Below, one piece after another: positions 12,701 to 50,247 of a stretch of DNA of 64,000 bases (the stretch's first letter is position 1; the number at the start of each line of letters is the position of its first letter). Origin of the DNA: Solirubrobacteraceae bacterium (GTDB lineage: Bacteria > Actinomycetota > Thermoleophilia > Solirubrobacterales > Solirubrobacteraceae). Under the pieces are notes generated by a model. That model made no database searches. It was not told the origin of the DNA and saw nothing but the letters and a program-made list of their open reading frames with translations. The translations under genes were made by a program, and so were the position numbers. The DNA lies in contig DATMLP010000009.1 of assembly GCA_035570415.1 (NCBI GenBank), positions 10,644 through 74,643 on the forward strand, written 5' to 3'.

Positions 12701-12703
12701 AGC

Positions 12704-15450: not shown

Positions 15451-15451
15451 T

Positions 15452-33424: not shown

Positions 33425-33542
33425 CAACGGTCTCCCCCACACCCAGCCGCCGTGCCTCGGCCAGGAAGCGGCGACGGTCGGCGTGCTCGAGATCCAGCAG
33501 TGCGTCGAGCGACCAGTGGAAGCGACCCGCGAGGCTGGCCAT
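33417..33542 (-). CDS. Small conserved ORF (HWSLD..LDLEH..RRRF motif). Either standalone or the -1 frameshift extension of the upstream chaperone
   Basis: MASLAGRFHWSLDALLDLEHADRRRFLAEARRLGVGETVDG (41 aa). This is the C-terminal part of track ORF 33417..34001, whose upstream part overlaps the chaperone out of frame. Its only in-frame start, the ATG at 33542, has GGAG directly abutting it, which is poor spacing. Confidence 0.5.
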   Translation of the reverse strand: MASLAGRFHWSLDALLDLEHADRRRFLAEARRLGVGETVDG

Positions 33543-33978: not shown

Positions 33979-34419
33979 CTACTGGCGTTCCAAACCCTCA
34001 TGGCAGATGTGCAGCTCCTCGAGGGCGATCTCGTTGCCGCTGGCGTTGAGCGAGCTGCCGGAGTACTTGATCGGCCAGCCTTCTTTGAACGCGTACGTGG
34101 CGATCGTCGACCCGTTGTAGTCCACCAGCTCGATCGTCCCGTCGACCCGCGCCGATTCGGGGCCTTCCTTGATGACCGTGTCGCGCCACTTCCACAGTTC
34201 CAGGTTCTCGTCGATGCCGCGCTTGAGGGTGATGTTCGACCACTTCGTGGCGCCCGGCACCTTGCGCACGGTGGGCAGGCCGTTGGCGTCGACCGATTTC
34301 TGCTCGATCACGTCGGTCTCCGAGTCGAGACCCGAGCACTCGCGGAACATGCCGACGTTCTCACGGCCGCCGAGGTTGAGGCGGAAGTGGGATGAGGGGC
34401 GTGGCTGCTTGTCCGGCAT
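33979..34419 (-). CDS. CIS inner tube protein 1 (T4 gp19-like)
   Basis: 146 aa: SSHFRLNLGGRENVGMFRECSGLDSETDVIEQKSVDANG...KVPGATKWSNITLKRGIDENLELWKW is a strong gp19/Afp1-type tube signature. Confidence 0.9.
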   Translation of the reverse strand: MPDKQPRPSSHFRLNLGGRENVGMFRECSGLDSETDVIEQKSVDANGLPTVRKVPGATKWSNITLKRGIDENLELWKWRDTVIKEGPESARVDGTIELVDYNGSTIATYAFKEGWPIKYSGSSLNASGNEIALEELHICHEGLERQ

Positions 34420-34550: not shown

Positions 34551-36152
34551 TTATTCGCTCACCTCCGAGGCGTCCGCGGAGTACTGGCTGATGCGGAACA
34601 CGACGAACTCGGCCGGCTTGACCGGCGCGATCCCGATTTCGACGATCACCTGACCGGCCTCGATCACATCCGGGGGGTTGGTCTCGGAGTCGCACTTCAC
34701 GAAAAACGCCTGTTCGGGAGTCGGCCCGAACAGCGCACCTTCGCGCCAGGTGCGCGTGAGGAAGTTGGAGGCGGCGATCTTCAGCTGCATCCACAGCCGT
34801 TCGTCGTTGGGCTCGAACACCGCCCACTGCGTGCCCTCCATGATCGACTCGGAGATGTAGTTGAACAGCCGGCGCACGTTCAGGTAGCGCCACTCCGGGT
34901 CGCTGGAAAGCGTGCGCGCGCCCCACACGCGGATGCCGCGACCGGGGAACGAGCGGATGCAGTTGATGCCCACGCGGTTGAGGCCGCCCTGCTCCTCCTG
35001 GGTGATCTGAAAGCCCAGCCCGTTGACGCCCAGCACGACCTCGTTGGCGGGCGCCTTGTGCACGCCGCGGGTGGAGTCGGTGCGCGCCCACACGCCGGCC
35101 ATGTGGCCGCTCGGCGGCACCATCAGCGGCTGGTTGGTGAGCGGGTTCATCACCTCCAGCCACGGGTAGTAGAGCGTCGCGAACTTGGAGTCGTAGCCGG
35201 CCACGTTCTGGCGCCACTCCAGCACGTCCTGGGGCAGCAGGTCGGGCGGCGCGTCGAGGATCGCCATGCGGTCGCCGGCGTTCTCGCAGTGGGCGATCAT
35301 CTTGCCCTGCTGATCGCGCAGCTGCGCGTCGGCGCCGTTCGAGGCAAGCGTCATCAGATCGGGCATGCACACCATCGTCACCTCGTCGACCGCGGCCAGG
35401 CCGCCCATGCCGCGCCGGCGCGCGACGTCGCCCTCGAAGTGCGAGGACTCGATCTTGGCGGACGGGATGCTCGGCAGCGCCAGCGCGTAGCTGCCGACCT
35501 TGGGGGCGCGCTGGGCCTCGGGCAGCGAGGCGCCGGTCTCCTCGATGCGGATCAGCTTGGAGGTGGCGTTCACCTTGGTCGCCAGATAACTGCGGCCTTT
35601 CTTCAGCGACAGCCCCTCGAACACCTCCTGCTCGCCGCCCGCGCTGACCACCAACCGGTAGCTCGGAGCCTGCTCCTGTTTGGCCTCGCCGCCGTCTTTC
35701 TTGTCCTCGCCACCGTCTTTCTTGGCATCGCCGCCCGGCGCCTCCTCGCTGAGCTCGAGCTTGACGGCGCCGGCGGCGGGGTTCTCGAGCGCCACCGCCC
35801 GGAACGCCTCCACCCCCGGGTCCGCGGCGGCCGGCAGGGCCGCCTGCGCCGCGGGGGCGTCGTCGGCGTCGCCGACGCGCACCACCCAGCAGAGCCCGCC
35901 GCCGTTCTGGAAGAACCCGTACACCGAATGCGCCAGATAGGCGCCCTCCATGAACGGGCCGTTCTCCGGTTCGCGGGGATCGCCGAACAGGCGCGCGAAC
36001 TGCGTCCAGTTGGAGATTCGCATCGGGGTGTTGATCGGACCGCCCGGAGCGAGCCCGACGAACGCCGCGATCGAGGTCCCGACCCCCTCGATGGGCTTTG
36101 ACTGGGAGGGAATCTCCTCGACGTAGACCCCGGGGGTCAGATAGGTGGGCAT
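34551..36152 (-). CDS. CIS contractile sheath protein
   Basis: 533 aa. MPTYLTPGVYVEEIPSQSKPIEGVGTSIAAFVGLAPGGP is the hallmark phage/eCIS sheath N-terminus. The C-terminal sheath domain (NCIRSFPGRGIRVWGARTL) is present. GAAGGAG lies 6 nt upstream of the ATG. Confidence 0.92.
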   Translation of the reverse strand: MPTYLTPGVYVEEIPSQSKPIEGVGTSIAAFVGLAPGGPINTPMRISNWTQFARLFGDPREPENGPFMEGAYLAHSVYGFFQNGGGLCWVVRVGDADDAPAAQAALPAAADPGVEAFRAVALENPAAGAVKLELSEEAPGGDAKKDGGEDKKDGGEAKQEQAPSYRLVVSAGGEQEVFEGLSLKKGRSYLATKVNATSKLIRIEETGASLPEAQRAPKVGSYALALPSIPSAKIESSHFEGDVARRRGMGGLAAVDEVTMVCMPDLMTLASNGADAQLRDQQGKMIAHCENAGDRMAILDAPPDLLPQDVLEWRQNVAGYDSKFATLYYPWLEVMNPLTNQPLMVPPSGHMAGVWARTDSTRGVHKAPANEVVLGVNGLGFQITQEEQGGLNRVGINCIRSFPGRGIRVWGARTLSSDPEWRYLNVRRLFNYISESIMEGTQWAVFEPNDERLWMQLKIAASNFLTRTWREGALFGPTPEQAFFVKCDSETNPPDVIEAGQVIVEIGIAPVKPAEFVVFRISQYSADASEVSE

Positions 36153-36429: not shown

Positions 36430-37317
36430 TCAGCGGCGACGGCGAGCGGCCGCTTTGGCGGCGCCGAGCGCGATGTCGACGCCGGGACCAGGCACCACCA
36501 ACTCGCCGTCGGCCTCGCCGCCGTCGGCGGCGCGCGCCAAGCAGCGATAGGCGCCGGGGCCGACGCGTTCGAAGCGAAAGCGCCCGTCGGGCCCGCTCGC
36601 CGTCCACAGGCCCAGCTCCGGGATCGCCACCCACGCGTTGGCGAGCGGCTCGCCGCCGCCGTCGCGGACCGTCCCGCCGACGCGGTGCAGCTCGATCACG
36701 TTGGCGCGGGCGCCGTCTGCGTCGCGCACGCGCACCGTCTGGGTGCGCACCTCCGGCCCGCGCTCGAGCGAGGTGCCGGGCTCACAGGCAAGCGCGATCA
36801 CATAGTCGAGCGAGGCCTTGTATTGGCCGCCGATCGACGACCAGAAATCGGCCTTCCCCTCGCCCTTGGGCTGGCCGACTTTGGCGCGCAACGGATGCTG
36901 GGCGCTCGTGTCGCGCAGCGCGCCGGCGAGCACCTCCTCGGGCAGTTCGGGGTAGGCGTAGAGCACGGCGAGTACCTGCGAGAGCAGACGGTGCTCGTCC
37001 TCCACGGCGCGCGCCCAGGCGGTGAGCGCGAAGGATGCCTCGACGATCAGCGGCGGGCGGCGCTCGCGCGCGGCGCCACGGCTCTGTTCGAGCTCCCACT
37101 CGACCGGACGGTGGTCTTTGGACTCGCGCAGGTCGTAGAGGAAGGCGTTGACGGTGGGGGCGTTGAGCGTCGCCGACCACTCCTTGGCGGGTGCGTCGAA
37201 GGCGATCTCCACGCCGTCGAAACCGTGGCGCTGCAGCTCACGCTGGAGCAGCCCGCGCAGCGACTCGTCGAGGTCGGCGAGCATCGTGTTGAGGGGGACG
37301 ATTGTGGTCGTGGTCAT
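36430..37317 (-). CDS. CIS tail terminator/cap protein (DUF4255, Afp16/Pvc16-like) with a C-terminal carboxypeptidase-regulatory-like domain
   Basis: LADLDESLRGLLQRELQRHGFDGVEIAFDAPAKEWSATLNAPTVNAFLYDLRE matches the DUF4255 pattern. C-terminal GTVRDGGGEPLANAWVAIPELGLWTASGPDGRFRFERVGPGAYRC looks like a CarboxypepD_reg-like fold. Confidence 0.8.
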   Translation of the reverse strand: MTTTTIVPLNTMLADLDESLRGLLQRELQRHGFDGVEIAFDAPAKEWSATLNAPTVNAFLYDLRESKDHRPVEWELEQSRGAARERRPPLIVEASFALTAWARAVEDEHRLLSQVLAVLYAYPELPEEVLAGALRDTSAQHPLRAKVGQPKGEGKADFWSSIGGQYKASLDYVIALACEPGTSLERGPEVRTQTVRVRDADGARANVIELHRVGGTVRDGGGEPLANAWVAIPELGLWTASGPDGRFRFERVGPGAYRCLARAADGGEADGELVVPGPGVDIALGAAKAAARRRR

Positions 37318-37395: not shown

Positions 37396-39513
37396 ATGGC
37401 GGTGATGGCCGAGCACGCGGTGATCGAGGAGCCCGCGGCTGCCGAGCCCGCGCAGCAGCGGCTCCCCGCCGCCGTCCCCCCGAGCCCCCTCGAGGCCCTT
37501 GGGGCGCTGCGGGCCGCCGGCAACAGCGCGATCGCCGGGCTGCTCCAGGGCGGCCTGCGCGCCCAGCTCACGCGGCAGGTGGAAGGCAACCCCGGTGCGC
37601 CGTCGGGCACCGCCAACGCGGACCCGTCGGTCGCCGACGCCGCCAACCACCAGGCGCCGGCCGCGCCGGGGGGACAGTCGGCCAACATGGCCGTGAAGGT
37701 GAAGGCGACGCCCGAGGCGCCGCTGGAAGGTGAATCGGTCTCCGAAGAAGACCTCTTCGAAAAGCAGGCGGCGCCGACGCAGGAATCGGGCTCCTCCTCC
37801 CCCAGCTCCTCCTCCGGTTCCCCTGCCCCCGAATCCTCCTCGTCCGGCTCTGCCGCCCCTGGCTCCTCCTCCGCCCCCGCACAGCAGTCCGAACAGCAGT
37901 CCTCGCCGTCTTCCTCGAGCGCGCCCGACGGCTTCACCACGGTCAAAGAAATCTCGGGCACCGCTGCCGCGCCGATCGTCGAGGAGTCGGCCGACAACTC
38001 GCTGTTCATCGACCCGGGGCCCAAGGCCGACGACGTCCAACAGGGCCAGATCGGGGATTGCTGGGACTTGGCCACGTTCATCGCGATCGTTAGCAGCGAC
38101 CCCGGCAAGATCCAATCGATGATGAGCCCGGACGGCTCGGGGGGAGCGTCGGTGACCTTCTACAGACGCCAGGCCGTGGCGGCGACCCCCGGGACGGGCG
38201 CGGGCGCAGGCGCGCCCCCGGCGGCACCGACCTACGACTACATCCCCACCGTGGTGGCGGTCAACAAAGAACTCCCGATGGACCTCGCCCAGCCAGACGT
38301 CACGCCCTCGGTGGCGTTGGCGATCCGCACGTTGATCGGCGACCAGCCCTACGGCCACTCCGTCCACGGCGCGCAGCTGCGTGCCGCCGACACACCGAAG
38401 GTGAGCAAGTGGTGGTGCATCGTCAACGGCGAAACGCTCGAGGTGCACCGGCTCGAGGTCTTCCAGATGGCACGCTGGTCGCCGCTGCTGGAGAAGGCGG
38501 GCGCGCGCTTCTCCGAGGAGTACGGCCAGTACGGGCATGGAGAAAAAACCGAACAAGCGAACAACCCAGAGGGGGAGCAACAGGACCCGAGCCAGGGCTA
38601 CGGCAACCTGGAGGGCGGCTGGCCGCGCTACACGACGACGCTGTTCTACGGCAAGGAGGGCGAGCAGGTGGCGGGCGGCCAGAGCGACACCTCCGAAACG
38701 GCTGCGCTGCCCCCGAACGCCACCTCCGAAGCGGTCCTGAACGCCAACCAGGCGTCCTTCGAACGGCTGCTGACGCTATCCGGCCAGGGCGAAGCCAACG
38801 AGCAGGGCGCCGTCCCGGACGAAGGCAAGGTGGGCGTAGTGACCGCCGACACCGCCTCGGACGTGTACTACACACGTCTGCAGGAAGCGCTCGTGGCCGC
38901 CGAAGGCGACCCCGACTGGGCCAACCTGAAGCCGCCCACCACGGCGAGCCTGGCGAAAGTCGCGAGCGCGCTCAAGGCGCTCGAAAAAGCCGAACCGGAC
39001 CCCGAACCGCTGCCCAAGCCACCGCCGCCCAATTGCAAGACCGCGCTCCAGGAAGCAGCCGCGGTGGCGGCCACGACCGCCGCCGAACCCGCCACCAACC
39101 CGACGCTGATCGACGAAAAACGCTCGAAGGCGATCAAGGACATGCTCGACCAGCTGCTGATCGTCGAGAACGAGGGCAAAGACCACGGGGCCGCAACCCA
39201 GAGCGTGTACCCCGAGCACGCCTACGCGGTGCTCGGTGTCGAAATCCTCGACACCTCCGGTAAGCCCTCCACGATCCGCGACGAACCGCCCGCCAAGCGC
39301 CAGGCGATGTTCGGAACGATTGACGTCGAAAAGTCGATGGTCAAGATGATGAACCCGCACCACGCCAACGTGCCCGACCCGACGGGCACCGTGCACGACA
39401 AAACGGGCGTGTTCCCCCTCACGCTGGACCGCTTCTTCCGGCTGTTCGCGAACGTCACCTCCTCGCAGGTGACCCCGACGAACCCGCAGTCCATACCCGA
39501 GAGCGGCGGATGA
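37396..39513 (+). CDS. Calpain-like (peptidase C2-type) cysteine protease with N-terminal GNxA motif; candidate CIS cargo
   Basis: 705 aa. Cys motif QQGQIGDCWDLATFIAI. Calpain helix motif RWSPLLEKAGARFSEEYGQYG...GYGNLEGGW. His motif VYPEHAYAVLGV. Asn motif VKMMNPHHAN. The N-terminal segment LEALGALRAAGNSAIAGLLQG is followed by a ~150-aa Ser/Pro-rich linker. Confidence 0.65.
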   Translation: MAVMAEHAVIEEPAAAEPAQQRLPAAVPPSPLEALGALRAAGNSAIAGLLQGGLRAQLTRQVEGNPGAPSGTANADPSVADAANHQAPAAPGGQSANMAVKVKATPEAPLEGESVSEEDLFEKQAAPTQESGSSSPSSSSGSPAPESSSSGSAAPGSSSAPAQQSEQQSSPSSSSAPDGFTTVKEISGTAAAPIVEESADNSLFIDPGPKADDVQQGQIGDCWDLATFIAIVSSDPGKIQSMMSPDGSGGASVTFYRRQAVAATPGTGAGAGAPPAAPTYDYIPTVVAVNKELPMDLAQPDVTPSVALAIRTLIGDQPYGHSVHGAQLRAADTPKVSKWWCIVNGETLEVHRLEVFQMARWSPLLEKAGARFSEEYGQYGHGEKTEQANNPEGEQQDPSQGYGNLEGGWPRYTTTLFYGKEGEQVAGGQSDTSETAALPPNATSEAVLNANQASFERLLTLSGQGEANEQGAVPDEGKVGVVTADTASDVYYTRLQEALVAAEGDPDWANLKPPTTASLAKVASALKALEKAEPDPEPLPKPPPPNCKTALQEAAAVAATTAAEPATNPTLIDEKRSKAIKDMLDQLLIVENEGKDHGAATQSVYPEHAYAVLGVEILDTSGKPSTIRDEPPAKRQAMFGTIDVEKSMVKMMNPHHANVPDPTGTVHDKTGVFPLTLDRFFRLFANVTSSQVTPTNPQSIPESGG

Positions 39514-40454
39514 GCGACGCGGGCACGGCTGTCACGGTGGACACCGCGCAGCGGCTGGCGGAGGTCCGCCAGCGGTACCTCGAGGCGCTGGAACGGGGGG
39601 AGGAGTCGCTGATCGTCGAGCTCGCCCCGGGCTGCCTGGGGCTCGACCGGCCCCGCGCGCTCGGCAGCTGGGAGCTCGCCCCGGTGAACGCGACCGCCCC
39701 ACCGCCGATCGACGTGACGGTGCGCTGCTCGGAGGGGCTCTGCGTGCTGGCGCAGATCCCGGTGCGGATCGCCGCGCGGCGCGTGACGCTCGAACGCGTG
39801 GCGCTCGCCGGCGCCCGCGGCACCGCGCTCGGCGTGAGCGCCGAGCGGGAGCTCACGCTGCGCGATGTCACCGTGATGGGCAGCGTCGCGAGCCCACGCG
39901 ACCGCGCGGCGCTCGCCCTCTCCGCGGCAGGGAGCGCCGGCACCCGAGCGCACCTGGAGCGCGTCGTGGTGGGGCGCAACCAGGCGCGAGACGCGGCGCT
40001 CGGGTTGTACGCCGCAGCGGGGGCCTGGCTGGAGGACCTGCGCCTGGTGGATCTCGCCGTCGCGGGCGGCCGCGCCGACGCGCTGATCGCGATCGACGCG
40101 GTCCGCCGGCTGCGCGCGCAAGGCTGCACGTTCGGAACCGGTGCGGCCCGCGTGCTGCTGCGCCTGCTGCTGGCGGCCACCGACGCGGAGTTGAGCGGCT
40201 GCGCGCTGTCGGCGGGCGCCGGCGCGCTGCTCGAGATCTCAGAGCGTCAGCCGGCGGCCGGCGCGCCGCTGCGCCTGACCGGCCACTGCGCCGTGACCGC
40301 CCCGCTCGGCGAGCTGCCCGCGGGGGTCGTGGCGGACGACACGGTCAGCGTGGTCGACCCCACGGCCGTCGAGGGCCCGCTGGAGGCGGCGCTCGACCAG
40401 GCCGCCGAGCGCCTGATCGGCGTGGATGGGCGTCTGGAGCGGCTGCTGGGGTGA
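39510..40454 (+). CDS. Hypothetical protein translationally coupled to the calpain-like gene (Ala/Leu-rich, beta-helix-like periodicity)
   Basis: 314 aa. Its ATG overlaps the calpain-like stop (ATGA). Repeated segments such as RVTLERVALAGARGTALGVSAE / RELTLRDVTVMGSVAS / AHLERVVVGRNQAR / LEDLRLVDLAVAGGRA. No family recognised. Confidence 0.5.
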   Translation: MSDAGTAVTVDTAQRLAEVRQRYLEALERGEESLIVELAPGCLGLDRPRALGSWELAPVNATAPPPIDVTVRCSEGLCVLAQIPVRIAARRVTLERVALAGARGTALGVSAERELTLRDVTVMGSVASPRDRAALALSAAGSAGTRAHLERVVVGRNQARDAALGLYAAAGAWLEDLRLVDLAVAGGRADALIAIDAVRRLRAQGCTFGTGAARVLLRLLLAATDAELSGCALSAGAGALLEISERQPAAGAPLRLTGHCAVTAPLGELPAGVVADDTVSVVDPTAVEGPLEAALDQAAERLIGVDGRLERLLG

Positions 40455-40497
40455 GTCAGTCGGGCGCTGGCATGAGCCATCCGGGCGCTGGGGTGAG

Positions 40498-41682
40498 TCA
40501 GTCGACAAGGAGCATGATGCGCTGCCACTTCGGGGGGAGTTGCGCGACTTCGGCCTCGATGATCGACATCCAGTCCATCATCGAGGCGCCGACCGTCTGC
40601 TGCTTCTTTTCGTCTTCGTGTTCGGGGATGAACTTGGGTTCGCGGAAGGAGATCAGCGAGCCGTCGGTTTCGGCCACGCCGAGGCGCCCGCCGGGCTGGC
40701 CGGGGGGCCCCCACAGACCGATGTCGACCATGTGTTTGCACAGCACCTCCTCGGTGCCGATGGCGTTCCGTGCGGAGAAGTGGGCGATCCAGATGTCCTG
40801 CTCGGTCTCGCGCCAGCTCGGCACGGTCACCTTGCGCCGCTCGCGCAGCTGGCGCAGCTCGGTGAGCAGGTCTTCGGCGCCGGCGAGGATCTCGTTGCCG
40901 GCGGCTTCCGCGGCGTCCAGCGCGGCCTGTTCGTCGGCGTCGAGCGCGCCGGAGTTGGGGGCGTTGGAGCCGATCGAGGTCGCGACGTCGACGGCCTTGT
41001 CGAGCACCATGTCACCCTGGTTGTGCACGTCGGCGACCTTGAACAGCAGCTCGTTGACGTGCTCGAGACTGTAGATCCGCAGCTCGTTGGGGTCCGCCAT
41101 CGCGGCCTCGCCGAGCTCTGTGTGCTCCTCGCCGCCCTCAAACGCTTTGAGGATCTTGCCGCTCTTCTCGATCTTCTCGCGCGCCTCGTCGAGCTCGTGG
41201 GCTTTCTCAACGATCTTCGCGAGCACGCTCACGGCCTCCTCCTCGGGGGCGGCGAACGCAAGCGCGAGGCTCGCGGCGGCGATCAGCGCCTCGGCGATCT
41301 CCTCGTTGTGGACGTCCTCCTCGTGCGCCTGGCCGACGACCACCTGGTGGATCTTGAAGCACTCGGCGTAGATCCCGTTGACGTAGTTGTAGTGGTCCTG
41401 AGTGCCCTTCATGATCTCGTTGGCCTCGCGCATGCGTTCGTGGAAGGTGGCCTGCATGCCCTTCACGCGCGCGGGGACCGCGGATGCGGCGCTCGGCGTG
41501 GGCAGACGCGGACCGCCCTCTTCGCGCTGGAGCATGCGCGTGACGGCGTCGTTGCCGGCGGTGCGCTGCAGCGTACCGAGGTCGATCGACCCCGACGCGG
41601 TCGACCCTCCGGAGCCGCGGGAGCCGCGCGTGACGGCGGGGGTGCGCGCGGCCCGGCGGGTGCTCAACAGTCTCCCCTTCAT
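40498..41682 (-). CDS. Hypothetical helical protein with N-terminal GNxA motif; candidate CIS cargo
   Basis: 394 aa. N-terminal LGTLQRTAGNDAVTRMLQREEG. The rest is Glu/Lys/His/Ile-rich and predicted helical. It appears less GC-rich by eye than its neighbours. No family recognised. Confidence 0.55.
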   Translation of the reverse strand: MKGRLLSTRRAARTPAVTRGSRGSGGSTASGSIDLGTLQRTAGNDAVTRMLQREEGGPRLPTPSAASAVPARVKGMQATFHERMREANEIMKGTQDHYNYVNGIYAECFKIHQVVVGQAHEEDVHNEEIAEALIAAASLALAFAAPEEEAVSVLAKIVEKAHELDEAREKIEKSGKILKAFEGGEEHTELGEAAMADPNELRIYSLEHVNELLFKVADVHNQGDMVLDKAVDVATSIGSNAPNSGALDADEQAALDAAEAAGNEILAGAEDLLTELRQLRERRKVTVPSWRETEQDIWIAHFSARNAIGTEEVLCKHMVDIGLWGPPGQPGGRLGVAETDGSLISFREPKFIPEHEDEKKQQTVGASMMDWMSIIEAEVAQLPPKWQRIMLLVD

Positions 41683-41728
41683 GGCGCCGGGCGAGCATAC
41701 ACGCCTGTGTGGGCGCCGATCGCAGACC

Positions 41729-43357
41729 TCACTGCTGTCCCCCTCCCGAGCCGGACCCGGCGCCGGCGGCGGCCTGGCGGATCACCGGTTCCCACCAGGG
41801 GTCGTCGGCGGGGTTGCAGATGAATTTGTCGACCAGGCTGGTGACCGCTTCCTGCTGGGGCGTGCCCTGCCCGCCCGGGCCGGCGGCGGGCTGTTCGGAT
41901 TGCGGCGCCTGTCCTTCGGCCGGCGTGGCCGGCGCCGCGGGAGCGGCTTCTTTGGATTCCTTGGGCATGGTTGACCACACTTCTTTGATCTTCGTACCGA
42001 TTTCCTTGTCGGCGAACACGGCGAGCGCACGGGAGACGGCGAACAGCGGGTTGTCGGGGGAGTCCTTGGCGATTTCGGAGTGGGTCGGCCCGGAGAGTTC
42101 TTTGCTCTGCGCCTGGGTCCCCGATTGGGTGGTGGCGGCGTCGGTGATGGGGCCGGTGAGGCTCGCGAGCGAGGGGACGGTGAAGCCGAACGCCTTCATC
42201 ACGACGTCCTCGCCGAACAGACTGCAGGCAAGGTCGACAAGCTGCATGAGATCGTTCACCGCGGCGGTGGCGAGCTTGGCGGCAAAGCCGGCGCCGGAGA
42301 GCGCTTCTTTGGCCTTCGCCAGCGTGGTGCCGTTGGCGCGCAGCGAACCCTTGATGAAGGTGCGGCGCAGTTCGCCGCTCGTCAGCTCGGTCTCCAGCGC
42401 CTCCACCATGCTCACGAAGTTGTTGGCGCCGGGCGCGTAGGTGCCGGTCTGGATCTGCATCCGCCCGCCGGGGGCCGGTTCGCTGGTTTCGACGCCCGGC
42501 GGGGGCCCGCTCCCGTCCTGCGTCGGCGTGAGCGACCCAGGGGTGTGGCCGAGCGTGGTCTTTTGCAGCTGGTCCAGCAGCGGCTTGATCGAGGGGTCGT
42601 CTTTGAGCGTGACGATGCAGACCTCGGTGAAGTTGGAGTGGGAGAAGTAGTCCTCGACCGCGTGCAGGCCGTTGCCGAGCGCCTGCATCCCTTCCGGCGT
42701 TTCGCCCTTTTCGACAGCCTGCCCGAGCATTTCCCGGGCGTGCATCTTGCCCTGCTCGATGTAGGGGGGCAGGCCGCTCTTGGCCGACGCCGCGAGAATT
42801 TCCAGGCCGGCGGCGCGCTGGCGTTCATAGGCCGCCTGCTGCTCGGGCGAGAGCTTGGCGAGCGCTTCTTCGGTTCCCCCGATGGCGCCCGGCGCGGGAT
42901 CGAGCTTCGGATCCTCGGCGGTGCCGCCGCCTTCGGGGTTGTCGAGGTGCTCGGAGGGCGCGTAGCCGCCGAGATCGGCGTCGGTGAGTTCGCGCCCGAA
43001 CTCACCGAGGGCGAGAATGTTCAGCAGCAGCATCAGCGCGGGTGGGCGCTTCCCAGCTTCCCCCATCTGCGAGAAGTCCCGCAGCCAGTTGCCGAAGTAG
43101 GTCGATTTCACCTGTTCGGGGGTGAACCCGGCTTCGCCGAGCCCCTGCTGCTCGATCCCGCCGTGCCCCGCCTCGCCCTGCTGGTAGCGGGCGAGCGCGG
43201 AGCGCCGGGGAGGCGCGGCATGCGAGCGCAGATGGCGAGCGAACGCCCGGTTTCCCACATGGCTGGGCAGTCCGATCGCGGGCATCTTGGTCACCGCCGG
43301 CGCGGGGGCGACCTCGCGGGCGGGGCTCTCGGTCTCGATCGTCTGGCTCTCTCTCAC
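41729..43357 (-). CDS. HET-C-like domain protein (phospholipase C / P1 nuclease-fold, tentative) with N-terminal GNxA motif; candidate CIS effector
   Basis: 542 aa. GTG start overlaps the ATPase stop (GTGA). N-terminal LPSHVGNRAFARHLRS. Motifs STYFGNWLRDFSQ and GNGLHAVEDYFSHSNFTE match my memory of the Het-C domain. Confidence 0.55.
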   Translation of the reverse strand: MRESQTIETESPAREVAPAPAVTKMPAIGLPSHVGNRAFARHLRSHAAPPRRSALARYQQGEAGHGGIEQQGLGEAGFTPEQVKSTYFGNWLRDFSQMGEAGKRPPALMLLLNILALGEFGRELTDADLGGYAPSEHLDNPEGGGTAEDPKLDPAPGAIGGTEEALAKLSPEQQAAYERQRAAGLEILAASAKSGLPPYIEQGKMHAREMLGQAVEKGETPEGMQALGNGLHAVEDYFSHSNFTEVCIVTLKDDPSIKPLLDQLQKTTLGHTPGSLTPTQDGSGPPPGVETSEPAPGGRMQIQTGTYAPGANNFVSMVEALETELTSGELRRTFIKGSLRANGTTLAKAKEALSGAGFAAKLATAAVNDLMQLVDLACSLFGEDVVMKAFGFTVPSLASLTGPITDAATTQSGTQAQSKELSGPTHSEIAKDSPDNPLFAVSRALAVFADKEIGTKIKEVWSTMPKESKEAAPAAPATPAEGQAPQSEQPAAGPGGQGTPQQEAVTSLVDKFICNPADDPWWEPVIRQAAAGAGSGSGGGQQ

Positions 43358-45333
43358 GACACACCCTCGCGCACCTGGATGGCGGCATGGAAGCGCTCGA
43401 AGTCGCTCTCCAGCGTGAGCCGCCCGAGCTTGCCGTACTCGACCGCGACGGCGCGCACGAGGTGCTCCATCGTGATCGTGCCGCCATCGTCGGCGGCGAG
43501 GAAAGCGGCGGCGAGCGAGCAGTTGCGGATGCCCCCGCCGGAGAGCTTGAACTGGTTGGCGAGGAACTCGAGGTCGAGATCCTCCGCGAGCGGTGCGGTG
43601 GCGGGCAGCAAGAGGCGCCAGATGCGCACGCGGTCCTCGGGCTCGGGGAACGGGAAGTCGATCACGAAGTCCAGGCGACGCAGAAAGGCGTCGTCGATGT
43701 TGCGGCGGAAGTTGGTGGCTAGCACCACGGCGCCGGGGTAGGACTCCATCTTCTGCAGCAGGTAGGCGACCTCGATGTTGGCGTAACGGTCATGCGCGTC
43801 GGAGACCTCCGAGCGCTTGCCGAACAGCGCGTCGGCCTCGTCGAAGAAGAGGATCGCGTTGGAGCCCTCGGCGGCGGTGAAGATGCGGTCGAGGTTCTTC
43901 TCGGTCTCACCGATGTACTTGGATACGACGGTGGCCAGATCGAGGCGGAACAGCTCCAGGCCGAGCCCGTGCGCGAGCACCTGCGCGGCCATCGTCTTGC
44001 CGGTGCCCGACTCCCCGGCGAACAGCACCTTCAGCCCCTGTGTGCGCGCCACGGCGCGCTCGTAGCCCCACTCGGAGAGCACCAGGTCGCGGTGGCGCAG
44101 GTAGGCGGAGATCGAGCGCAGCAGCTCCAGCTGCCGTGGCGGCAGCACGAGGTCATCCCAGGTGAAGCCGGGCGGCAGCCGCGTGGCCAGTTCGCCGAGG
44201 CGGGTGCTGGAGGCCTGGCGGGCGCCGGCGTGCAGGTCCTCGCTCTCGATTCGCGCGGCCGCGCGGGCGGTGGCGTTCAGCCGCGCGACCTCGCAGGCGG
44301 TGGCGATCTGAGCCGCGCTGAGGCGGAACTTGGCGGCAACCTCATGCACCTCGTGCGCACTTCCGAAGGCCCGCCAGAGCGCGATGCGCTCGGCGAAGCC
44401 GGGCATCGCCGTCTCCACCACCATCACCGTCTGCTCGTCGAGGTGCAGCGCCGCATCGCGCGTGGGAGCGCAGATCAGGGGACGCTCGCCCCACGCATCC
44501 AGCGCACGGGCGACGCGCGCGCAGTCGGCTGGGCCGAGCTGCTCCAGGCGATCCAAGCACAGCCGCCGCCCCTCCAGGCGGGCGGCAAGCGTGGCGTCGG
44601 CGATCGCCTCCGGGGCGGCGAGCGCCTCGACGTCGAGCAACAGCAGCCCCCGCTCCAGCGCGGCGGCCAAGAGCAGCGGCGCGTCGGGCCCGGCGACCAG
44701 CAACGCCAGGCGGCTGTCGGCGGCGAGCAGGCTGCGCAGCTCCTCGATCGCGACGGCGTGGGAGCCGGCGGCGACCGCCGCCGCGACTGCCCCATCGAGG
44801 TCGACGCGCCGCACGCGCCCATCGCTGGCTGGCATGTCCAGACGCGCCCCGAGCAGCTGCGCGGCGAGCCGGTCGGGCACCTTCACCAGGCGGTCGGCCA
44901 GCGGCCCCGGGGCATCCCCGTCGAGCAGCCGGATCGCGCCGGCGCGACGCAGCGGAGCGTCGTGGGCGAAGCACGCGAGGATCTCATCGCGGGGCCGGCG
45001 CTCGTCGGCCAGCAGCCGCGCCACCAGTCGCGGGGAGGCGAGCTTGCGGGTGACGTCGTCGTGCAGGTAGGCAAGCAGCCGCCCATAGCGCGGGCTGAGC
45101 TCGGGGGCGGCGCATAGCGCGAGCACCTCGCGGTCGAGCTCGCCGAGCGCGAGCGCCTGCGCGGCGGTCCCGATGCGCGCGTCGAGGTCCTCGATCGGCG
45201 TGGCGTGGGCGAGCGAGCGAGCGAGATCGTCGGAGATGTAGAGGCCGCGGAACGGGTCGGCGGGGTTGGGGTCGGTAGCGGCGATCGCGTCGACCGCCGT
45301 GCGGATGCGGGCGTCGATCTCATCGAAGCGCAT
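43354..45333 (-). CDS. CIS-associated AAA+ ATPase (Afp15-like)
   Basis: 659 aa. Walker A GESGTGKTMAA, Walker B ILFFDEADALFGKR, and YIGETEKNL typical of classic AAA. A long N-terminal non-ATPase region, as in eCIS ATPases. Confidence 0.85.
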   Translation of the reverse strand: MRFDEIDARIRTAVDAIAATDPNPADPFRGLYISDDLARSLAHATPIEDLDARIGTAAQALALGELDREVLALCAAPELSPRYGRLLAYLHDDVTRKLASPRLVARLLADERRPRDEILACFAHDAPLRRAGAIRLLDGDAPGPLADRLVKVPDRLAAQLLGARLDMPASDGRVRRVDLDGAVAAAVAAGSHAVAIEELRSLLAADSRLALLVAGPDAPLLLAAALERGLLLLDVEALAAPEAIADATLAARLEGRRLCLDRLEQLGPADCARVARALDAWGERPLICAPTRDAALHLDEQTVMVVETAMPGFAERIALWRAFGSAHEVHEVAAKFRLSAAQIATACEVARLNATARAAARIESEDLHAGARQASSTRLGELATRLPPGFTWDDLVLPPRQLELLRSISAYLRHRDLVLSEWGYERAVARTQGLKVLFAGESGTGKTMAAQVLAHGLGLELFRLDLATVVSKYIGETEKNLDRIFTAAEGSNAILFFDEADALFGKRSEVSDAHDRYANIEVAYLLQKMESYPGAVVLATNFRRNIDDAFLRRLDFVIDFPFPEPEDRVRIWRLLLPATAPLAEDLDLEFLANQFKLSGGGIRNCSLAAAFLAADDGGTITMEHLVRAVAVEYGKLGRLTLESDFERFHAAIQVREGVS

Positions 45334-45345
45334 CTGCGCCCCTCG

Positions 45346-45915
45346 TCAGCCCGTCAGCTCGTCGGCGACGGTCTCGGCCTCGGTCTCCTGCGCGTCGCCA
45401 GGCTCGGAGACGGTGAGCGGCCCGCTGGTGGGGGCGCCGCGCTGCTGCACCACGTGGGTGAGCTCGTGCGCGAGCAGCCGGTCGCCCTCGCCGCTGCCGG
45501 GGCGGTACTCGCCAGTGGCGAAGAACACGTCGCTGCCAGTGGTGAAGGCGCGCGCGGAGACCGAGCGGGCGAGCGCGTCGGCGCCAGCGTCGGTGTGCAC
45601 CCGCACGTCGGCCAGCGGATCGCCGAGCTGCCCGGCGAAGCGCTCGCGCGAGCGCCCGTCGAGCGCACCGCCGCCGCCGCGCCTGCGGGCGATCGTGGCC
45701 TGCACCTCCGGGTGGACGGTGCCGTCAGTCAGGATGCCCGTGCCCTCACGGGAGATCAGCCCGCCGAACGCCCGGTTGCCGACCTCGGAGGCCAGGCGCT
45801 CGCGAGGATCGGGCTCGGGAGCCTCGCGCTGAGACTCCGGCGCGGCCGGCGCGAAGATGCTCTCGGCTTCGCCTTCGCGCTCGACATCCCCCTGGCGATG
45901 GTCGCTCACCGCCAA
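45346..45915 (-). CDS. DUF4157 (zincin HExxH) domain protein, eCIS-associated type
   Basis: 189 aa. LDGRSRERFAGQLGDPLADVRVHTDAGADALARSVSARAFTTGSDVFFATGEY...LLAHELTHVVQQ is the DUF4157 pattern. N-terminal RLASEVGNRAFGGLIS motif. Confidence 0.85.
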   Translation of the reverse strand: MAVSDHRQGDVEREGEAESIFAPAAPESQREAPEPDPRERLASEVGNRAFGGLISREGTGILTDGTVHPEVQATIARRRGGGGALDGRSRERFAGQLGDPLADVRVHTDAGADALARSVSARAFTTGSDVFFATGEYRPGSGEGDRLLAHELTHVVQQRGAPTSGPLTVSEPGDAQETEAETVADELTG

Positions 45916-45966: not shown

Positions 45967-47907
45967 TCAGCAGCCCTTCCCCGGGTGGGTCGAGCCCGGC
46001 GCCAGGCAGGCGATGGTGACGCTCGGCGAGCGGCCCGAGCGCGTGGTGAACTCGAACGAGCGCCCGACCCAGCCCTTCTTCAGCACCTCCACCGTGATCC
46101 GGGCGCCGACCTGCAGGTGGCGACCCTTGAAGAGACCGGCGAGACCGAAGTTCGGCCCCTGGGGCGGCGAGTGGTGCGGCTTGGTGGAGCACTTCTTGTG
46201 CCTGCGGCAATGCTTGCTGGCGTGAGAGTGTTTGACGCTCCCCACGGTCGGCGAGCGGTTGTGGGCGAACGGGCAGCCCTTCCCCTTGCAGGCGACTTCG
46301 ACATACCCTCCCTTGGGCACGCCGTGCACGGTCAGCGACTCGACCAGCGTGTACTTGCGCGTCCAGCCGAACGTCCACGTCATCGTCGCTTCCACCCCCG
46401 GGCGGGAGGGTGCGGGCGCCGGCGAAGGGACGGAGGGCGGCGGGGTGCTGCTCGCCGCCGGCGCCGCGCTGACGGCCACGCCGGTGCTGGTGGCCGACAC
46501 GGTGACGTTCAGCAGCGGGTAGGTGGCTGTCACACTGCAACTCAACTGGTGGCCGATCTCTTCGGCGGTGGGCACGTAGGCCTGGCTGGTGGCGCCGGCG
46601 ATCGCGCGGCCGTCGAGCAGCCACCGGTAGCCGTCGAAACCGAACATGCTCGTTGAGGGCGGCAACGACGCCCACGATGACCAGCTCGCTCCCGCGCACT
46701 GCAGCTGGCTCCCTACCTGCCCTGCACCCGTGACCGCGGGCGCCGTCTGCGAGGCGGGCGCCACGTCCAGGCCGATCCGGCCGACCGCCGGCGTGGTGCC
46801 GGAGTCGGTGAACCACATGTTGCCGTCTGGGCCCGGCGCGATCGCCTCGGGGCTGCTGCTCGCATGCAGTCCGGCGCTGTATTCCTTGATCGTGACCACT
46901 CCGTTGGGGTCGACCATGCCGACAACCGGGGGAAGACTCGGTTCGGCGCCAATACCAGTGAACCAGAGGTTGCCGTCAGGTCCCGCAGCGATGTCGTTCG
47001 GCGTGCTGCTTGGCGTGATGAAGGTCGTGAACGTGCCGCCCGGCGTGAGCCTCACCACCTCGTTGATGAATTCCTCGCCTTCGTTCTCGCCCGTGCCGGT
47101 AAACCAGAGGTTGCCTTCCGGGCCCCTCGTGATGTCTTCCGGGCGCAGATACACCTGGGGAATCCCGAGCTCCTTGATTTCGCCGCTCGGCGTAACCCGT
47201 CCGATCGCGTTGACTTCACCAGCGTCGGTGAACCACATATCGCCTTCGGGGCCTTCGGCGATCGCCTTCGGCACGCTGCCGGAGTTGAAGCCGGCGGTGA
47301 ACAGTGTGATTTCGCCGCCGGGCGTGATCCTGCCGATCGCGGGTGTTTTGCCCTCCTCGGTGAACCAGAGGTCGCCGTGGGGGCCGAGCGCCAGGCCGGC
47401 GGGGGCGCCGGAGCCGATCCCGGAGCGAAATTCGGTGATTTCGCCGTTCTGGGTAATGCGCCCGATCGCCGGGCTTGGGCCGCCGCTGATGAACCACATG
47501 TCGCCTTCCGCGCCCGCCACGATGTTGATCGGCTGATTGGTTGTGCCCGTGGCGTATTCGCTGAGCACCTGCCCGCCCGGGGAGAGCTTCACGATCTCGC
47601 CGCTGGAGCCCGTCTCGGTGAACCAGAGGTTGCCGTCGGGGCCCGCAGCGATGTCTTCCACGAACACTCCCGGCGAGCGGTCGATCTCTTCGATCTTGCC
47701 GAGCGGCGTTGCGAGCGCGGGCACAGCGCACAGCGCCAGCGCCGCGGCGACCCCGGCGAGGGTCGATGCGAACGCTCCACACCGGGTGAGCGATCCAGGC
47801 CGGACCAACGCTCCATGCCGGGCGAGCACTCCACGCCCAGGCGGGCCGGCGGCGCGGCGGCTCATCGCTCTTGCGGGTGGAAGACCACGCGCGGATGCTA
47901 GCGCCAC
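45967..47907 (-). CDS. Secreted beta-propeller protein with streptogramin-lyase (Vgb)-like repeats, an Ig-like unit and a Cys/His-rich C-terminal module
   Basis: About ten GP(D/E)GN(L/M)WFT(E/D) repeats. An Ig-like unit (VTGAGQVGSQLQCAGASW...YRWLLDGRAIAGATSQAY). C-terminal TMTWTFGWTRKYT...CKGKGCPFAH...CRRHKKC...CLAPGSTHPGKGC. The N-terminal signal-like region is preceded by an Arg-rich stretch, so the start may be internal. Confidence 0.75.
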   Translation of the reverse strand: MALASARGLPPARAMSRRAAGPPGRGVLARHGALVRPGSLTRCGAFASTLAGVAAALALCAVPALATPLGKIEEIDRSPGVFVEDIAAGPDGNLWFTETGSSGEIVKLSPGGQVLSEYATGTTNQPINIVAGAEGDMWFISGGPSPAIGRITQNGEITEFRSGIGSGAPAGLALGPHGDLWFTEEGKTPAIGRITPGGEITLFTAGFNSGSVPKAIAEGPEGDMWFTDAGEVNAIGRVTPSGEIKELGIPQVYLRPEDITRGPEGNLWFTGTGENEGEEFINEVVRLTPGGTFTTFITPSSTPNDIAAGPDGNLWFTGIGAEPSLPPVVGMVDPNGVVTIKEYSAGLHASSSPEAIAPGPDGNMWFTDSGTTPAVGRIGLDVAPASQTAPAVTGAGQVGSQLQCAGASWSSWASLPPSTSMFGFDGYRWLLDGRAIAGATSQAYVPTAEEIGHQLSCSVTATYPLLNVTVSATSTGVAVSAAPAASSTPPPSVPSPAPAPSRPGVEATMTWTFGWTRKYTLVESLTVHGVPKGGYVEVACKGKGCPFAHNRSPTVGSVKHSHASKHCRRHKKCSTKPHHSPPQGPNFGLAGLFKGRHLQVGARITVEVLKKGWVGRSFEFTTRSGRSPSVTIACLAPGSTHPGKGC

Positions 47908-48414: not shown

Positions 48415-50247
48415 TCAGCAACCCTTCCCTGGCTGATGGGAGCCGGGGGCTAGACATGATACCCGCACGCTCGGGGTCTTATCGGAGCGCGTGGTGAACA
48501 CGAACGACTTCCCCACCCAGCCCGTTTTGACGATGCTGACGGAGATCGTGTCCCCCGTGCGCAGATGGCTGTGCTTGAAGAGCGGCGTGAGGTTGACTTC
48601 GGGCCCCTGAGGTCGGGGCTTGGCAGCCTTGCACTTCTTGTGGGGGCGGCACGTCTTGTGAGACCGGTGGCGAGCCACCGTCGCGGAGCGGTAATGCCCA
48701 AGCGGGCACCCGTGCCCCTCACAGACGACTTCCACACGCCCCCCCTTGGGCACTGCGTGCACGATCAGCGACTGCACGACCGTGTACTTGCGCGTCCAGC
48801 CGAACGTCCAGGTCATCGACGCTTCGACACGCGACAGCGGCGGGGGTGGCGGGGGCGGGGTCGCCACGACCGCCGACGGGTTGGAGACTTCCGAGGCGAA
48901 GCCGGCAACGTTCGTGGCGGTGACGACGACGCGCAGCGTGTGGCCCACGTCGCCCGCTCCCAGAGGGTGGGCGACGCCCGTTTCGCCGCTGAGATTGGAG
49001 CAGCTGCCGCCCGCGGCGTCGCAGGATTGCCACTGGTAGGCGAAAGTCCCGGGGCTGTTCGTCCACGAGCCCGGCGAGGCGGTCAGCACCTGGCCCTCGG
49101 TCGGCGTGCCGGAGATTGTCGGGGGTGCGATAACCGCCGGAAGATAGGGAGTCGTGAGCCGCCCGATGTGGTAGAAGGGCCCCGGGGTCGGGCTCACTTC
49201 CGTGGCACGGCCATCCATGAACCAGATGTTGCCATCCGAGCCCCGGGCGATCGCCGTCGGTTCGCTCTCGGGGGTCGATATCGGGAACGACTTCACTTCT
49301 TTCCCAGACGGGCCGATGCGGCCAATCGCATCGATTGTCGCCTGGCCGAACCACATGTTGCCATCCGGACCTTCGACGATCCCGTCGGGGGAGTAGTTGG
49401 TGCTCGTCGCCGGGAACTCTTTGATTTCGCCATTTGAGGCGATCTCTCCGATCTGGCTGGCGCCAGACTCGACAAACCACATGTTGCCGTTCGGCCCCGG
49501 GGCGATTGCGGTGGGGTAGCTGTTCTTGGTTGGGATCAAAAAGTGTTCGTATTTTTCCGTCGAGGCGTTGATCCGACCGATGTAGGCTTCGTTTTCGTCT
49601 CGTTCGGTAAACCACATGTAGCCGCCGGGCCCCTGGGCGATCCCACCGATATCGGGGAAGAACCCATGCGCGCCGAGAGCGGCGACGAGATGGAGTTCGC
49701 CATTTGGCTTGATCCGCCAGATCTTGTCTTCACTACCGAACTGGGCGGTGGCGAACCACATGTTGCCTTCAGGGCCCGCCGCGATCGCGCCAAGCTGATT
49801 TTCTTTGGCGCCGTCGGGAAACTCCTTGATCTGCGGTTCGCCTTTCCCCAAGGTGACCTGCCCGATGAGTTGTTCCTCGTTGCTGTTGTCACCGAGGTCG
49901 GTGAACCACAGCGTGTCGTTAGGACCAGGGGCCATCTGATAGGGGTCGCTGTGTTCGGGATGTTCTGTGCTGCCGGGCGCCGTCGGGACGGCGTATTCGT
50001 GGATCTGGCCATCCAGGTTGACCAGGCCGACCTTGCCGACCTCCGTTCCGCCGGAGTCGGTGTCAACCGTGAACCAGATGTTGCCGTCGGGACCCTCCAC
50101 AAACCCGGAGTTGGGGAACTCTTCCGTGCTGGGGAACGGGAATTCTTCGACCCCTCCGGGTGGCGCGAGCGCCGCCGAGGGCGCGGCGAACACGAAGCCG
50201 CCGACCAGCATCAGGGCGCCGATCAGTGCCGTCAGGCTTTGTTTCAT
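48415..50247 (-). CDS. Secreted Vgb-like beta-propeller protein, tandem paralogue of 45967..47907
   Basis: Same repeat type (GPDGNIWFT, GPEGNMWFA, GPGGYMWFTE, GPNGNMWFVE, GPDGNMWFGQ, GSDGNIWFMD). Ig-like unit (GSWTNSPGTFAYQWQSCDAAGGSC). Same C-terminal module ending CLAPGSHQPGKGC. I use the ATG at 50247 (MKQSLTALIGALMLVGGFVFAAPSAALA signal peptide) rather than the track start at 50364. Confidence 0.8.
   Translation of the reverse strand: MKQSLTALIGALMLVGGFVFAAPSAALAPPGGVEEFPFPSTEEFPNSGFVEGPDGNIWFTVDTDSGGTEVGKVGLVNLDGQIHEYAVPTAPGSTEHPEHSDPYQMAPGPNDTLWFTDLGDNSNEEQLIGQVTLGKGEPQIKEFPDGAKENQLGAIAAGPEGNMWFATAQFGSEDKIWRIKPNGELHLVAALGAHGFFPDIGGIAQGPGGYMWFTERDENEAYIGRINASTEKYEHFLIPTKNSYPTAIAPGPNGNMWFVESGASQIGEIASNGEIKEFPATSTNYSPDGIVEGPDGNMWFGQATIDAIGRIGPSGKEVKSFPISTPESEPTAIARGSDGNIWFMDGRATEVSPTPGPFYHIGRLTTPYLPAVIAPPTISGTPTEGQVLTASPGSWTNSPGTFAYQWQSCDAAGGSCSNLSGETGVAHPLGAGDVGHTLRVVVTATNVAGFASEVSNPSAVVATPPPPPPPLSRVEASMTWTFGWTRKYTVVQSLIVHAVPKGGRVEVVCEGHGCPLGHYRSATVARHRSHKTCRPHKKCKAAKPRPQGPEVNLTPLFKHSHLRTGDTISVSIVKTGWVGKSFVFTTRSDKTPSVRVSCLAPGSHQPGKGC

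Follow-up and report, generated by a model that had tools for sequence, protein, structure and literature searches.

A conserved N-terminal GNxA motif as a candidate cargo leader of DUF4157-associated contractile injection systems

How a contractile injection system (CIS) chooses and loads its cargo is an open question, and a practical bottleneck for the use of CISs as protein-delivery tools; effector prediction now leans on gene position, on the presence of DUF4157 and on vague N-terminal biochemical features. The question is raised by a 64-kb stretch of DNA from a metagenome-assembled genome (MAG) of a Solirubrobacteraceae bacterium (hereafter the window), in which gene calling based on the G+C content of third codon positions (GC3), together with Pfam searches, gave 32 likely genes and revealed a CIS locus on the minus strand. 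A short motif close to the N-terminus, which we call the GNxA leader or motif 1, appears to tag four proteins of this locus: one is a small protein with DUF4157 alone, and the other three, a Het-C phospholipase-like protein, a 394-aa orphan and a calpain-like protease, are putative effectors. We infer that the motif serves as a loading signal; in particular, we lean, with moderate confidence, towards the view that it is a modular CIS cargo leader that is probably read by a DUF4157 adaptor and/or by the AAA+ ATPase encoded in the same locus.

The initial annotation had noticed the motif in four otherwise unrelated proteins, and all four strings are present in the genes to which they were assigned: LASEVGNRAFGGLIS in the DUF4157 protein (GN at residue 46), LPSHVGNRAFARHLRS in Het-C (GN at residue 35), LQRTAGNDAVTRMLQ in the orphan (GN at residue 43) and ...ALRAAGNSAIAGLLQ in the calpain-like protein (GN at residue 42). 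In a six-frame translation of the 64 kb there are exactly four instances of the pattern GN.A[hydrophobic]...[hydrophobic], all at residues 35-46 of these proteins, and the sole other GN.A among the 32 likely genes is internal to the baseplate J protein (residue 413) and stands without the flanking pattern. In each of the four proteins the motif lies within residues 30-57, outside the effector fold. The leader is covered by no Pfam or NCBIfam model, and neither the leader profile nor the DUF4157 protein matched a PDB sequence. That the leader might be part of the Pfam eCIS_core model was considered and rejected, as, in the DUF4157 protein, residue 57 is the last of the motif and the model match begins at residue 85; no eCIS_core match at E <= 0.01, and none with a local profile, was obtained for the Het-C, orphan and calpain-like proteins. 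A fully syntenic locus in another MAG (L201) keeps all four leaders: the core of the leader is identical in the ortholog of the DUF4157 protein, and the calpain-like core AAGNSA[I/L]AGLLQ is retained with different flanking residues. Canonical leaders are found on homologs of the calpain-like protein, and G35 and N36 of Het-C are nearly invariant in the family alignment. The accompanying suggestion that a low-complexity or Pro/Ser-rich linker follows the motif fared less well, for the calpain-like protein does contain a long Ser/Pro-rich tract, but some 80 residues downstream, and the orphan and Het-C have only short Pro/Ala/Ser-rich stretches after the motif.

The motif extends far beyond the window. 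With the ATPase as anchor we retrieved 80 CIS loci, from Actinomycetota, Chloroflexota, Acidobacteriota, Gemmatimonadota, Cyanobacteria, Nitrospirota, Pseudomonadota, Myxococcota, Bacillota and archaea, and scanned their 1.1 million residues of open reading frames (ORFs) with a motif-1 profile hidden Markov model (HMM) trained on related loci. There were 60 matches at E <= 1 and none in the same sequences reversed, which indicates that the motif is real and not compositional. The consensus of the profile is LLALQRTVGNRAVQRLL, or about LLxLQRTxGNxAVxRLL, and its G and N are invariant over 51 leaders. Of the 80 loci, 41 have the motif; they represent more than 10 phyla and include one from an ANME-1 archaeon, and the motif is conserved in low-GC as well as high-GC lineages. 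Matches lie 30-100 residues from the ORF start, and for 20 of the 32 leader ORFs in full-length loci the leader is carried by a gene that directly flanks the ATPase gene. Among DUF4157 ORFs adjoining CIS ATPase genes, 35 of 52 have the motif upstream of the domain, most commonly at a gap of about 25 residues; the earlier remark that such leaders are common on actinobacterial DUF4157 proteins is thereby borne out, and holds well outside that phylum. A further 20 or so motif-bearing ORFs at CIS loci lack DUF4157, and Pfam searches of 14 of these found neither DUF4157 nor any other family. The motif is therefore a real, conserved N-terminal element that is independent of the domain downstream.

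A further comparison concerns the homologs of the three effectors. Among 90 Het-C homologs, 37 carry the leader only (with 2 further weak cases), 35 carry DUF4157 only (with 4 more in which the motif score is negligible), 6 carry both and 6, mostly truncated, carry neither. The 20 homologs of the orphan divide into 10 with the leader only, 6 with DUF4157 only, 1 with both and 3 with neither, all 3 of which start just downstream of the leader position. For the calpain-like protein, the best 150 of 371 representatives comprise 21 with the leader only, 30 with DUF4157 only, 1 with both and 98 with neither; this set gave 22 leader matches forward and 0 reversed. In these three families, then, the leader and the DUF4157 module largely replace one another as N-terminal heads: the leader is separable both from DUF4157, which is the accepted marker of extracellular CISs (eCISs) at that N-terminal position (PMC3482391, PMC8213781, PMC11297309), and from the effector fold, and homologous effector domains can bear it in place of the DUF4157 module. 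Such an exchange of heads is the pattern seen in polymorphic toxins, whose N-terminal trafficking modules can be swapped, and the near-exclusive distribution of leader-only and DUF4157-only heads fits an arrangement in which DUF4157 is supplied either in cis or in trans. In the one orphan homolog with both heads (P0098, 540 aa), which is a natural fusion, a small DUF4157 protein complete with its leader is followed by another GNxA leader (residues 189-202) and then by the orphan domain; in Rosetta-stone fashion, the fusion links the small DUF4157 protein to leader-bearing cargo.

As a separate observation, a degenerate (R)GNAAxxD string is present at residues 29-40 of seven calpain homologs that fail the leader profile (P0151, P0153, P0155, P0156, P0170, P0188 and P0236). 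It may be a leader that has diverged, or be without meaning: in calpain-family N-termini that lack the full motif, bare GN.A was counted 10 times, as against 6 times in the reversed control, and the enrichment is not robust.

Structural models suggest that the leader is exposed. In an AlphaFold2 (AF2) model of Het-C built from a 49-sequence alignment (predicted template modelling score 0.80), a helix at residues 27-34 is followed by a break at G35 and a second helix at 36-46, all with a pLDDT score (predicted local distance difference test) <50, after which the confident domain begins. The model of the DUF4157 protein (mean pLDDT 83) has helices at residues 37-44 and 46-53 separated by a break (pLDDT ~52-54), next to a domain with pLDDT >90. 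Two independent AF2 models thus predict the leader to be a flexible peptide, helix-Gly-helix in form, that does not pack against the fold. The segment of about 37 aa that precedes the motif is hydrophilic (Kyte-Doolittle hydropathy (KD) -0.75, compared with -0.23 in the rest of the protein) and disorder-prone, the fraction of disorder-promoting residues being 0.68, compared with 0.57 in the rest. A reading of this region as a Sec or Tat signal was rejected, as none of 50 leader-only proteins has a Sec-like hydrophobic core (at least 9 consecutive hydrophobic residues within the first 45 aa). The published profile of eCIS signal peptides describes a very hydrophilic first 50 aa and a slightly positive charge over residues 6-21 (PMC11297309). 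The first of these features is found on average and in three of the four window proteins, the calpain-like protein having a KD of +0.45; net charges over residues 6-21 are -3, -2, +4 and -4 in the window proteins, with a mean of +0.5 over the 50 leader-only proteins.

The small DUF4157 protein contains a second conserved element. Its order, according to local HMMs, is motif 1 (40-57), DUF4157 (82-159) and motif 2 (167-187); it has the sequence HELTH, which corresponds to the HExxH of the zincin-like domain, and no toxin domain, and we regard it as a candidate adaptor or constant module. Motif 2 (consensus LTVSQPGDAYEQEADRVADQVM) has 137 matches, compared with 0 in reversed sequences, and occurs nearly always with DUF4157, immediately before or after it (for example in L050, L063, L068 and P0103-P0107); motif 1 stands alone in 167 proteins. 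In the AF2 model, motif 2 of the DUF4157 protein forms a strand and a helix (175-188) with pLDDT 85-97, which suggests that motif 2 is a satellite of DUF4157 and part of that module, separate from the GNxA leader. We met no description of motif 2 in papers on eCISs, although no literature search was aimed at it. Motif 2 also bears on the one loading region that is both validated and available to us as sequence, that of the AlgoCIS lumen cargo Cgo1 (498 aa, taken from a supplementary table), which has motif 2 at residues 31-56, acidic repeats and DUF4157; motif 2 is the only conserved element in its N-terminal domain (NTD). Loading requires both the Cgo NTD and the Alg15 ATPase (10.64898/2026.05.27.728243). 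Because Cgo1 is without the GNxA motif, these experiments support N-terminal loading regions in such systems, and do not support the GNxA motif itself.

A fold search with the model of the DUF4157 protein returned nothing significant, the best hit being the minimal metallopeptidase zymogen proabylysin (4jiu, E = 1.6, template modelling score 0.50 on the target). Proabylysin is held latent by its own C-terminal tail, and the likeness is a lead on a possible role of the C-terminal motif 2.

How, then, might the leader act? We propose that it lies some 35-45 residues from the N-terminus in a hydrophilic, flexible extension and marks cargo and effectors of CISs of the DUF4157/Cis15 type. The loading machinery would recognise the exposed leader in trans, as a docking peptide. 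Its likeliest reader would be the small DUF4157 adaptor; in Streptomyces, a small DUF4157 adaptor bridges the N-terminal region of the cargo to the tube initiator. The AAA+ ATPase encoded alongside may read the leader too, or instead, and by either route the protein would enter the tube lumen during assembly. The ATPase, a candidate cargo loader, has 578 relatives in genomes, the best 80 of which are all within CIS loci, and in the window its gene sits between leader-tagged genes. eCIS cargo is loaded by way of N-terminal disordered regions and the Pvc15 or Alg15 ATPase (10.64898/2026.05.27.728243; PMC11495950), and it is this analogy, together with tight gene adjacency, that makes the ATPase plausible as a receptor. 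With regard to the adaptor, a DUF4157 gene is present in 9 of 10 loci that contain leader-only cargo and in 38 of 70 others (p = 0.04), and a small DUF4157 protein in 5 of 10 and 11 of 70, respectively (p = 0.02). A bolder form of the proposal, which we regard as doubtful, is that the GNxA leader is a sequence-defined sorting tag of the large DUF4157/Cis15-type branch of CISs, common to bacteria and archaea across phyla and read by the small DUF4157 adaptor or the ATPase.

To what extent is the leader tied to CIS loci? A search of 5.8 billion proteins with the 46-column motif-1 profile gave a single match, the leader being too short for E-values at database scale. For this reason we back-translated L-Q-R-x-x-G-N-x-A-V-x-R-x-L into a degenerate DNA pattern and ran it, blind to context, on metagenome contigs. 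Of 120 matching stretches, 109 are in frame within an ORF; the motif starts at a median residue of 42 (interquartile range 36-58), and at or before residue 110 in 95 of 99. DUF4157 is present in 19 of the 109 and absent from 90. A CIS marker occurs on the same stretch in 2% of cases with less than 2 kb of flank, 4% with 2-4 kb, 27% with 4-7 kb and 37% (7/19) with at least 7 kb, and in 0 of 11 chance-match loci. The motif is therefore far from equally frequent away from CIS loci. The association made in the initial annotation holds in that over-representation beside CIS genes is strong, especially in genes flanking the ATPase gene, but it is looser than had been assumed, in that most motif genes are solitary.

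Several of our observations weigh against a role of the leader in CIS loading. The validated Cgo1 loading region, as noted above, has no GNxA motif. About half of the ATPase-anchored loci are without the motif, which is thus not universal, and the four loci from Streptomyces and Kitasatospora show at most one weak match (L062). In the context-blind sample, 12 of the 19 loci with at least 7 kb of flank (63%) hold only housekeeping genes. Leader-only Het-C genes are solitary in 6 of 7 cases, the sole case at a CIS locus being the syntenic ortholog in L201; of three DUF4157-bearing Het-C genes, two belong to a CIS locus and one is solitary, numbers too small for a comparison with the 1 in 7. Moreover, only 10 loci underlie the co-occurrence statistics for DUF4157, three of the four window proteins depart from the published eCIS signal-peptide profile in their N-terminal charge (residues 6-21), and the leader copy of the calpain-like protein matches the HMM weakly, for it has one residue fewer between the Leu and the GN.

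These same observations lend themselves to another explanation, in which the leader is a general N-terminal module of polymorphic toxin-like proteins (a pro-peptide, a helix for oligomerisation or membrane association, or some other export or regulatory tag) and the CIS loci are incidental. It would account for the finding that most leader-only genes in the context-blind sample lie amid housekeeping genes with no conserved neighbour, and for the loading of Cgo1 without a GNxA motif; DUF4157 itself occurs in organisms that are not known for CISs, for instance beside ripC in mycobacteria (PMC12067865). We nevertheless consider it unlikely. A CIS is adjacent in 27-37% of cases, compared with at most 1% expected for a random gene (an estimate that assumes one locus of ~30-50 kb per ~5 Mb and counts CIS-positive genomes only), leader ORFs lie tightly beside the ATPase gene, and in three effector families the leader and the eCIS marker DUF4157 take each other's place. 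The lack of a Sec-like hydrophobic core also speaks against an export tag of that kind. As for the solitary genes, the 12 long CIS-negative loci contain ABC transporters, methylmalonyl-CoA mutase, TGT and DXP synthase, and the commonest Pfam families of these neighborhoods include no other secretion system. Finally, orphan effectors encoded at a distance from the apparatus genes are normal for type VI secretion systems (T6SS).

Less likely again, in our judgment, is that the leader is a processing or latency element of the zincin-like DUF4157 peptidase, that is, a cleavage site or inhibitory pro-segment that is cut in cis or in trans and so releases or activates the toxin. DUF4157, under the name PVC-metallopeptidase, was put forward as the releasing peptidase of toxins of the Photorhabdus virulence cassette (PVC) type (PMC3482391). 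In addition, leader-only cargo co-occurs with DUF4157 genes in CIS loci, the gap of ~25 residues between motif and domain in minimal proteins is regular, and the second leader of P0098, between the DUF4157 module and the orphan domain, is placed where a release site would be expected. However, AF2 leaves the leader undocked on DUF4157, with low confidence, and it is motif 2, not GNxA, that packs on the domain. The metalloprotease motifs of DUF4157 are dispensable for the toxicity of Cgo1 (PMC8894135), and DUF4157 is dispensable for loading (10.64898/2026.05.27.728243). Furthermore, a cut at about residue 40 of a leader-only protein would free merely a short peptide, to no obvious purpose, and a DUF4157 gene is missing from the surroundings of many solitary leader genes.

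Chance, or a side effect of Ala/Gly/Arg-rich composition in a high-GC genome, might be suggested by the shortness of the motif, by the 10 bits of the calpain-like copy and by the 10 versus 6 bare GN.A matches in calpain-family N-termini, but is excluded for the motif as a whole, is refuted for three of the four proteins and has in our estimate a negligible probability overall, given the reversed controls (0 versus 60 in the loci, 0 versus 22 in the calpain set), the fixed distance from the N-terminus, the conservation in low-GC, high-GC and archaeal sequences and the invariance of G and N in 51 leaders.

The positions of the leaders and of the genes around them are given in Table 1.

Table 1 Features of the CIS locus, in coordinates of the window
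Feature	Position	Strand	Details
Small DUF4157/eCIS_core protein	45346-45915	-	189 aa; Pfam eCIS_core E = 3.3e-29, residues 85-161
Leader motif 1 of the DUF4157 protein	45745-45798	-	residues 40-57, RERLASEVGNRAFGGLIS; HMM 21.5 bits, E = 5e-5
Motif 2 at the C-terminus of the DUF4157 protein	45355-45417	-	PLTVSEPGDAQETEAETVADEL; motif-2 HMM E = 4.5e-8
AAA+ ATPase, Pvc15/Afp15/Alg15-like, with N-terminal winged-helix domain (WHD)	43354-45333	-	659 aa; Pfam AAA E = 5e-25, WHD E = 6e-20
Het-C-like putative toxin, leader present, no DUF4157	41729-43357	-	542 aa; Pfam Het-C (PF07217) E = 1.9e-21
Leader motif 1 of Het-C	43223-43270	-	residues 30-45, GLPSHVGNRAFARHLR; HMM 20.5 bits
394-aa orphan, leader present, candidate effector	40498-41682	-	no Pfam or NCBIfam family
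Leader motif 1 of the orphan, canonical form	41521-41580	-	residues 35-54, LGTLQRTAGNDAVTRMLQRE; HMM 30.9 bits, E = 5.5e-8
314-aa ORF, start overlaps stop of the calpain-like gene	39510-40454	+	ORF map, GC3; no leader motif
Calpain-like cysteine protease candidate, variant leader and Ser/Pro-rich linker	37396-39513	+	705 aa; Pfam Peptidase_C2 33.6 bits
Variant leader motif 1 of the calpain-like protein	37510-37551	+	residues 39-52, LRAAGNSAIAGLLQ; HMM 10.2 bits, E = 0.2
Pvc16_N/DUF4255 tail-terminator-like protein, start of structural CIS genes	36430-37317	-	Pfam Pvc16_N E = 1.2e-32
Sheath	34551-36152	-	Pfam family
Tube	33979-34419	-	Pfam family
803-aa ORF at tape-measure position	31031-33442	-	neither DUF4157 nor leader
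Tube-like proteins, VgrG-like spike, baseplate J, Tail_P2_I	down to 24960	-	Pfam

Between the ATPase and Pvc16 genes lie the genes for Het-C, the orphan, the calpain-like protein and the 314-aa ORF, the last two on the plus strand. Tube-initiator-like proteins are encoded at 30418-31002 and 29698-30387. The Het-C assignment is well above the curated Pfam cut-off (76.7 bits versus 21), and Tox-HET-C is listed among PVC-type toxins (PMC3482391). A relation of the Het-C fold to phospholipase C is unconfirmed, as Foldseek gave no significant match and placed clostridial alpha-toxin and PC-PLC only among the weak ones. The orphan is 100% identical to an annotated protein from a Solirubrobacteraceae MAG. 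In the calpain-like protein the Peptidase_C2 (PF00648) match exceeds the cut-off of 23.8 bits and covers only residues 200-243, around a putative catalytic Cys (profile positions 36-78 of 297); the string HAYAV further along is compatible with a catalytic His. The 314-aa ORF is without a Pfam or NCBIfam match and is kept beside the calpain-like gene in L201, so that it is possibly an immunity or accessory partner of the protease.

Other features of the window and of the related loci deserve mention. Downstream of the baseplate genes (20184-24895, minus strand) are an 881-aa protein with three PASTA domains and a beta-propeller-like region, and a 665-aa membrane protein with FHA and M50/zincin-like domains; a PASTA-bearing protein is unusual at the tail-fibre position and could be a target-binding or anchoring part of the CIS. 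Directly upstream of the locus, a paralogous pair of Vgb_lyase/beta-propeller proteins (45967-47907 and 48415-50364, both minus strand) flanks a 165-aa Pro/Ala-rich ORF; a similar gene is found at the same place in L201, and the propeller proteins may be part of the CIS. The G+C content is 60-65% over positions 1-16000 and 69-76% in the CIS locus and the remainder, and the former segment may be laterally acquired or otherwise distinct. In the locus of Thermogemmatispora carboxidivorans (L208), a 614-aa eCIS_core protein (19840-21684) occupies the tape-measure position after the tube genes, a placement like that of the Tme-type effectors of Streptomyces davawensis, and three more eCIS_core proteins follow the ATPase gene.

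A short leader of conserved sequence would provide a handle for mutagenesis in the form of two invariant residues, a search key for effectors without DUF4157, solitary ones included, and a testable link to the enigmatic DUF4157 adaptor. Were the leader indeed a cross-phylum sorting tag, the solitary leader-only genes would amount to a large reservoir of CIS effectors that has so gone unrecognised, the tag, with its ~20 residues and two invariant positions, would lend itself to cargo prediction and to the programming of loading, and the view that eCIS loading sequences share no conserved sequence would be contradicted. If the leader instead turned out to be unrelated to loading, it would still be an unannotated and very widespread N-terminal element of toxin-like proteins that needs explanation.

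Earlier work has described N-terminal loading signals of eCISs, DUF4157 as a marker, Tox-HET-C as a toxin of the PVC type and small adaptors that contain DUF4157. Searches for the motif strings (GNxA, LQRTIGN, LQRTAGN, GNQAVQR and others) found no paper, in a search that omits subscription-only papers and so allows for a prior description. Danov et al. defined the eCIS signal by biochemical features only (PMC11297309), and their supplementary table contains many motif-bearing sequences, from four phyla. The closest parallel is with the signal peptides of PVC and antifeeding prophage (Afp) cargo (Pnf, Pdp1 and Afp18), whose loading is aided by Pvc15: these too are hydrophilic, low-confidence N-terminal extensions of ~50 residues outside the effector fold (PMC11495950), present on otherwise unrelated effectors and encoded beside a Pvc15-like ATPase gene. 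Whereas Evans and Waterfield describe "rare homology" among PVC-type leaders, which group only within lineage I (PMC11495950), the GNxA leader has a sharp core with an invariant G-N that is found across phyla, and for it loading is inferred. Likewise, the loading sequence of AlgoCIS cargo (Cgo1 and Cgo2 (UniProt A3HTA9), with a disordered NTD and DUF4157, dependent on Alg15) belongs to a DUF4157-associated kind of CIS, is N-terminal and has an AAA+ ATPase in its locus; but the NTD of Cgo1 has motif 2 (AKLxxGxPGDxYEQEAD) and acidic repeats and no GNxA, whereas the three effectors of the window have neither DUF4157 nor motif 2. The PROCIS preprint likewise holds that loading sequences are not conserved between systems (10.64898/2026.05.27.728243).

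DUF4157 itself (eCIS_core, or PVC-metallopeptidase) resembles the leader in being an N-terminal "constant head" of variable C-terminal toxins, in its genomic association and in the effector families on which it occurs, but it is a folded zincin-like domain, and the GNxA leader is a linear motif of 18-20 residues that stands upstream of DUF4157 or occurs without it. The small DUF4157 adaptor system of Streptomyces recalls the window in that a small DUF4157-only protein is encoded beside DUF4157-less candidate cargo in a CIS locus; however, the N-terminal region of Streptomyces Sle1 is a 440-residue coiled coil related to tape-measure proteins and not a short leader, and in Streptomyces-type loci the GNxA motif is weak or absent. 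Finally, the MIX and FIX markers of the T6SS, and the N-terminal trafficking domains of polymorphic toxins (PMC3482391), share with the leader the principle of a short N-terminal marker on diverse C-terminal toxins, with many orphan genes far from the apparatus and heads swapped by recombination, although they serve another apparatus and are unrelated in sequence, and the GNxA marker is much shorter.

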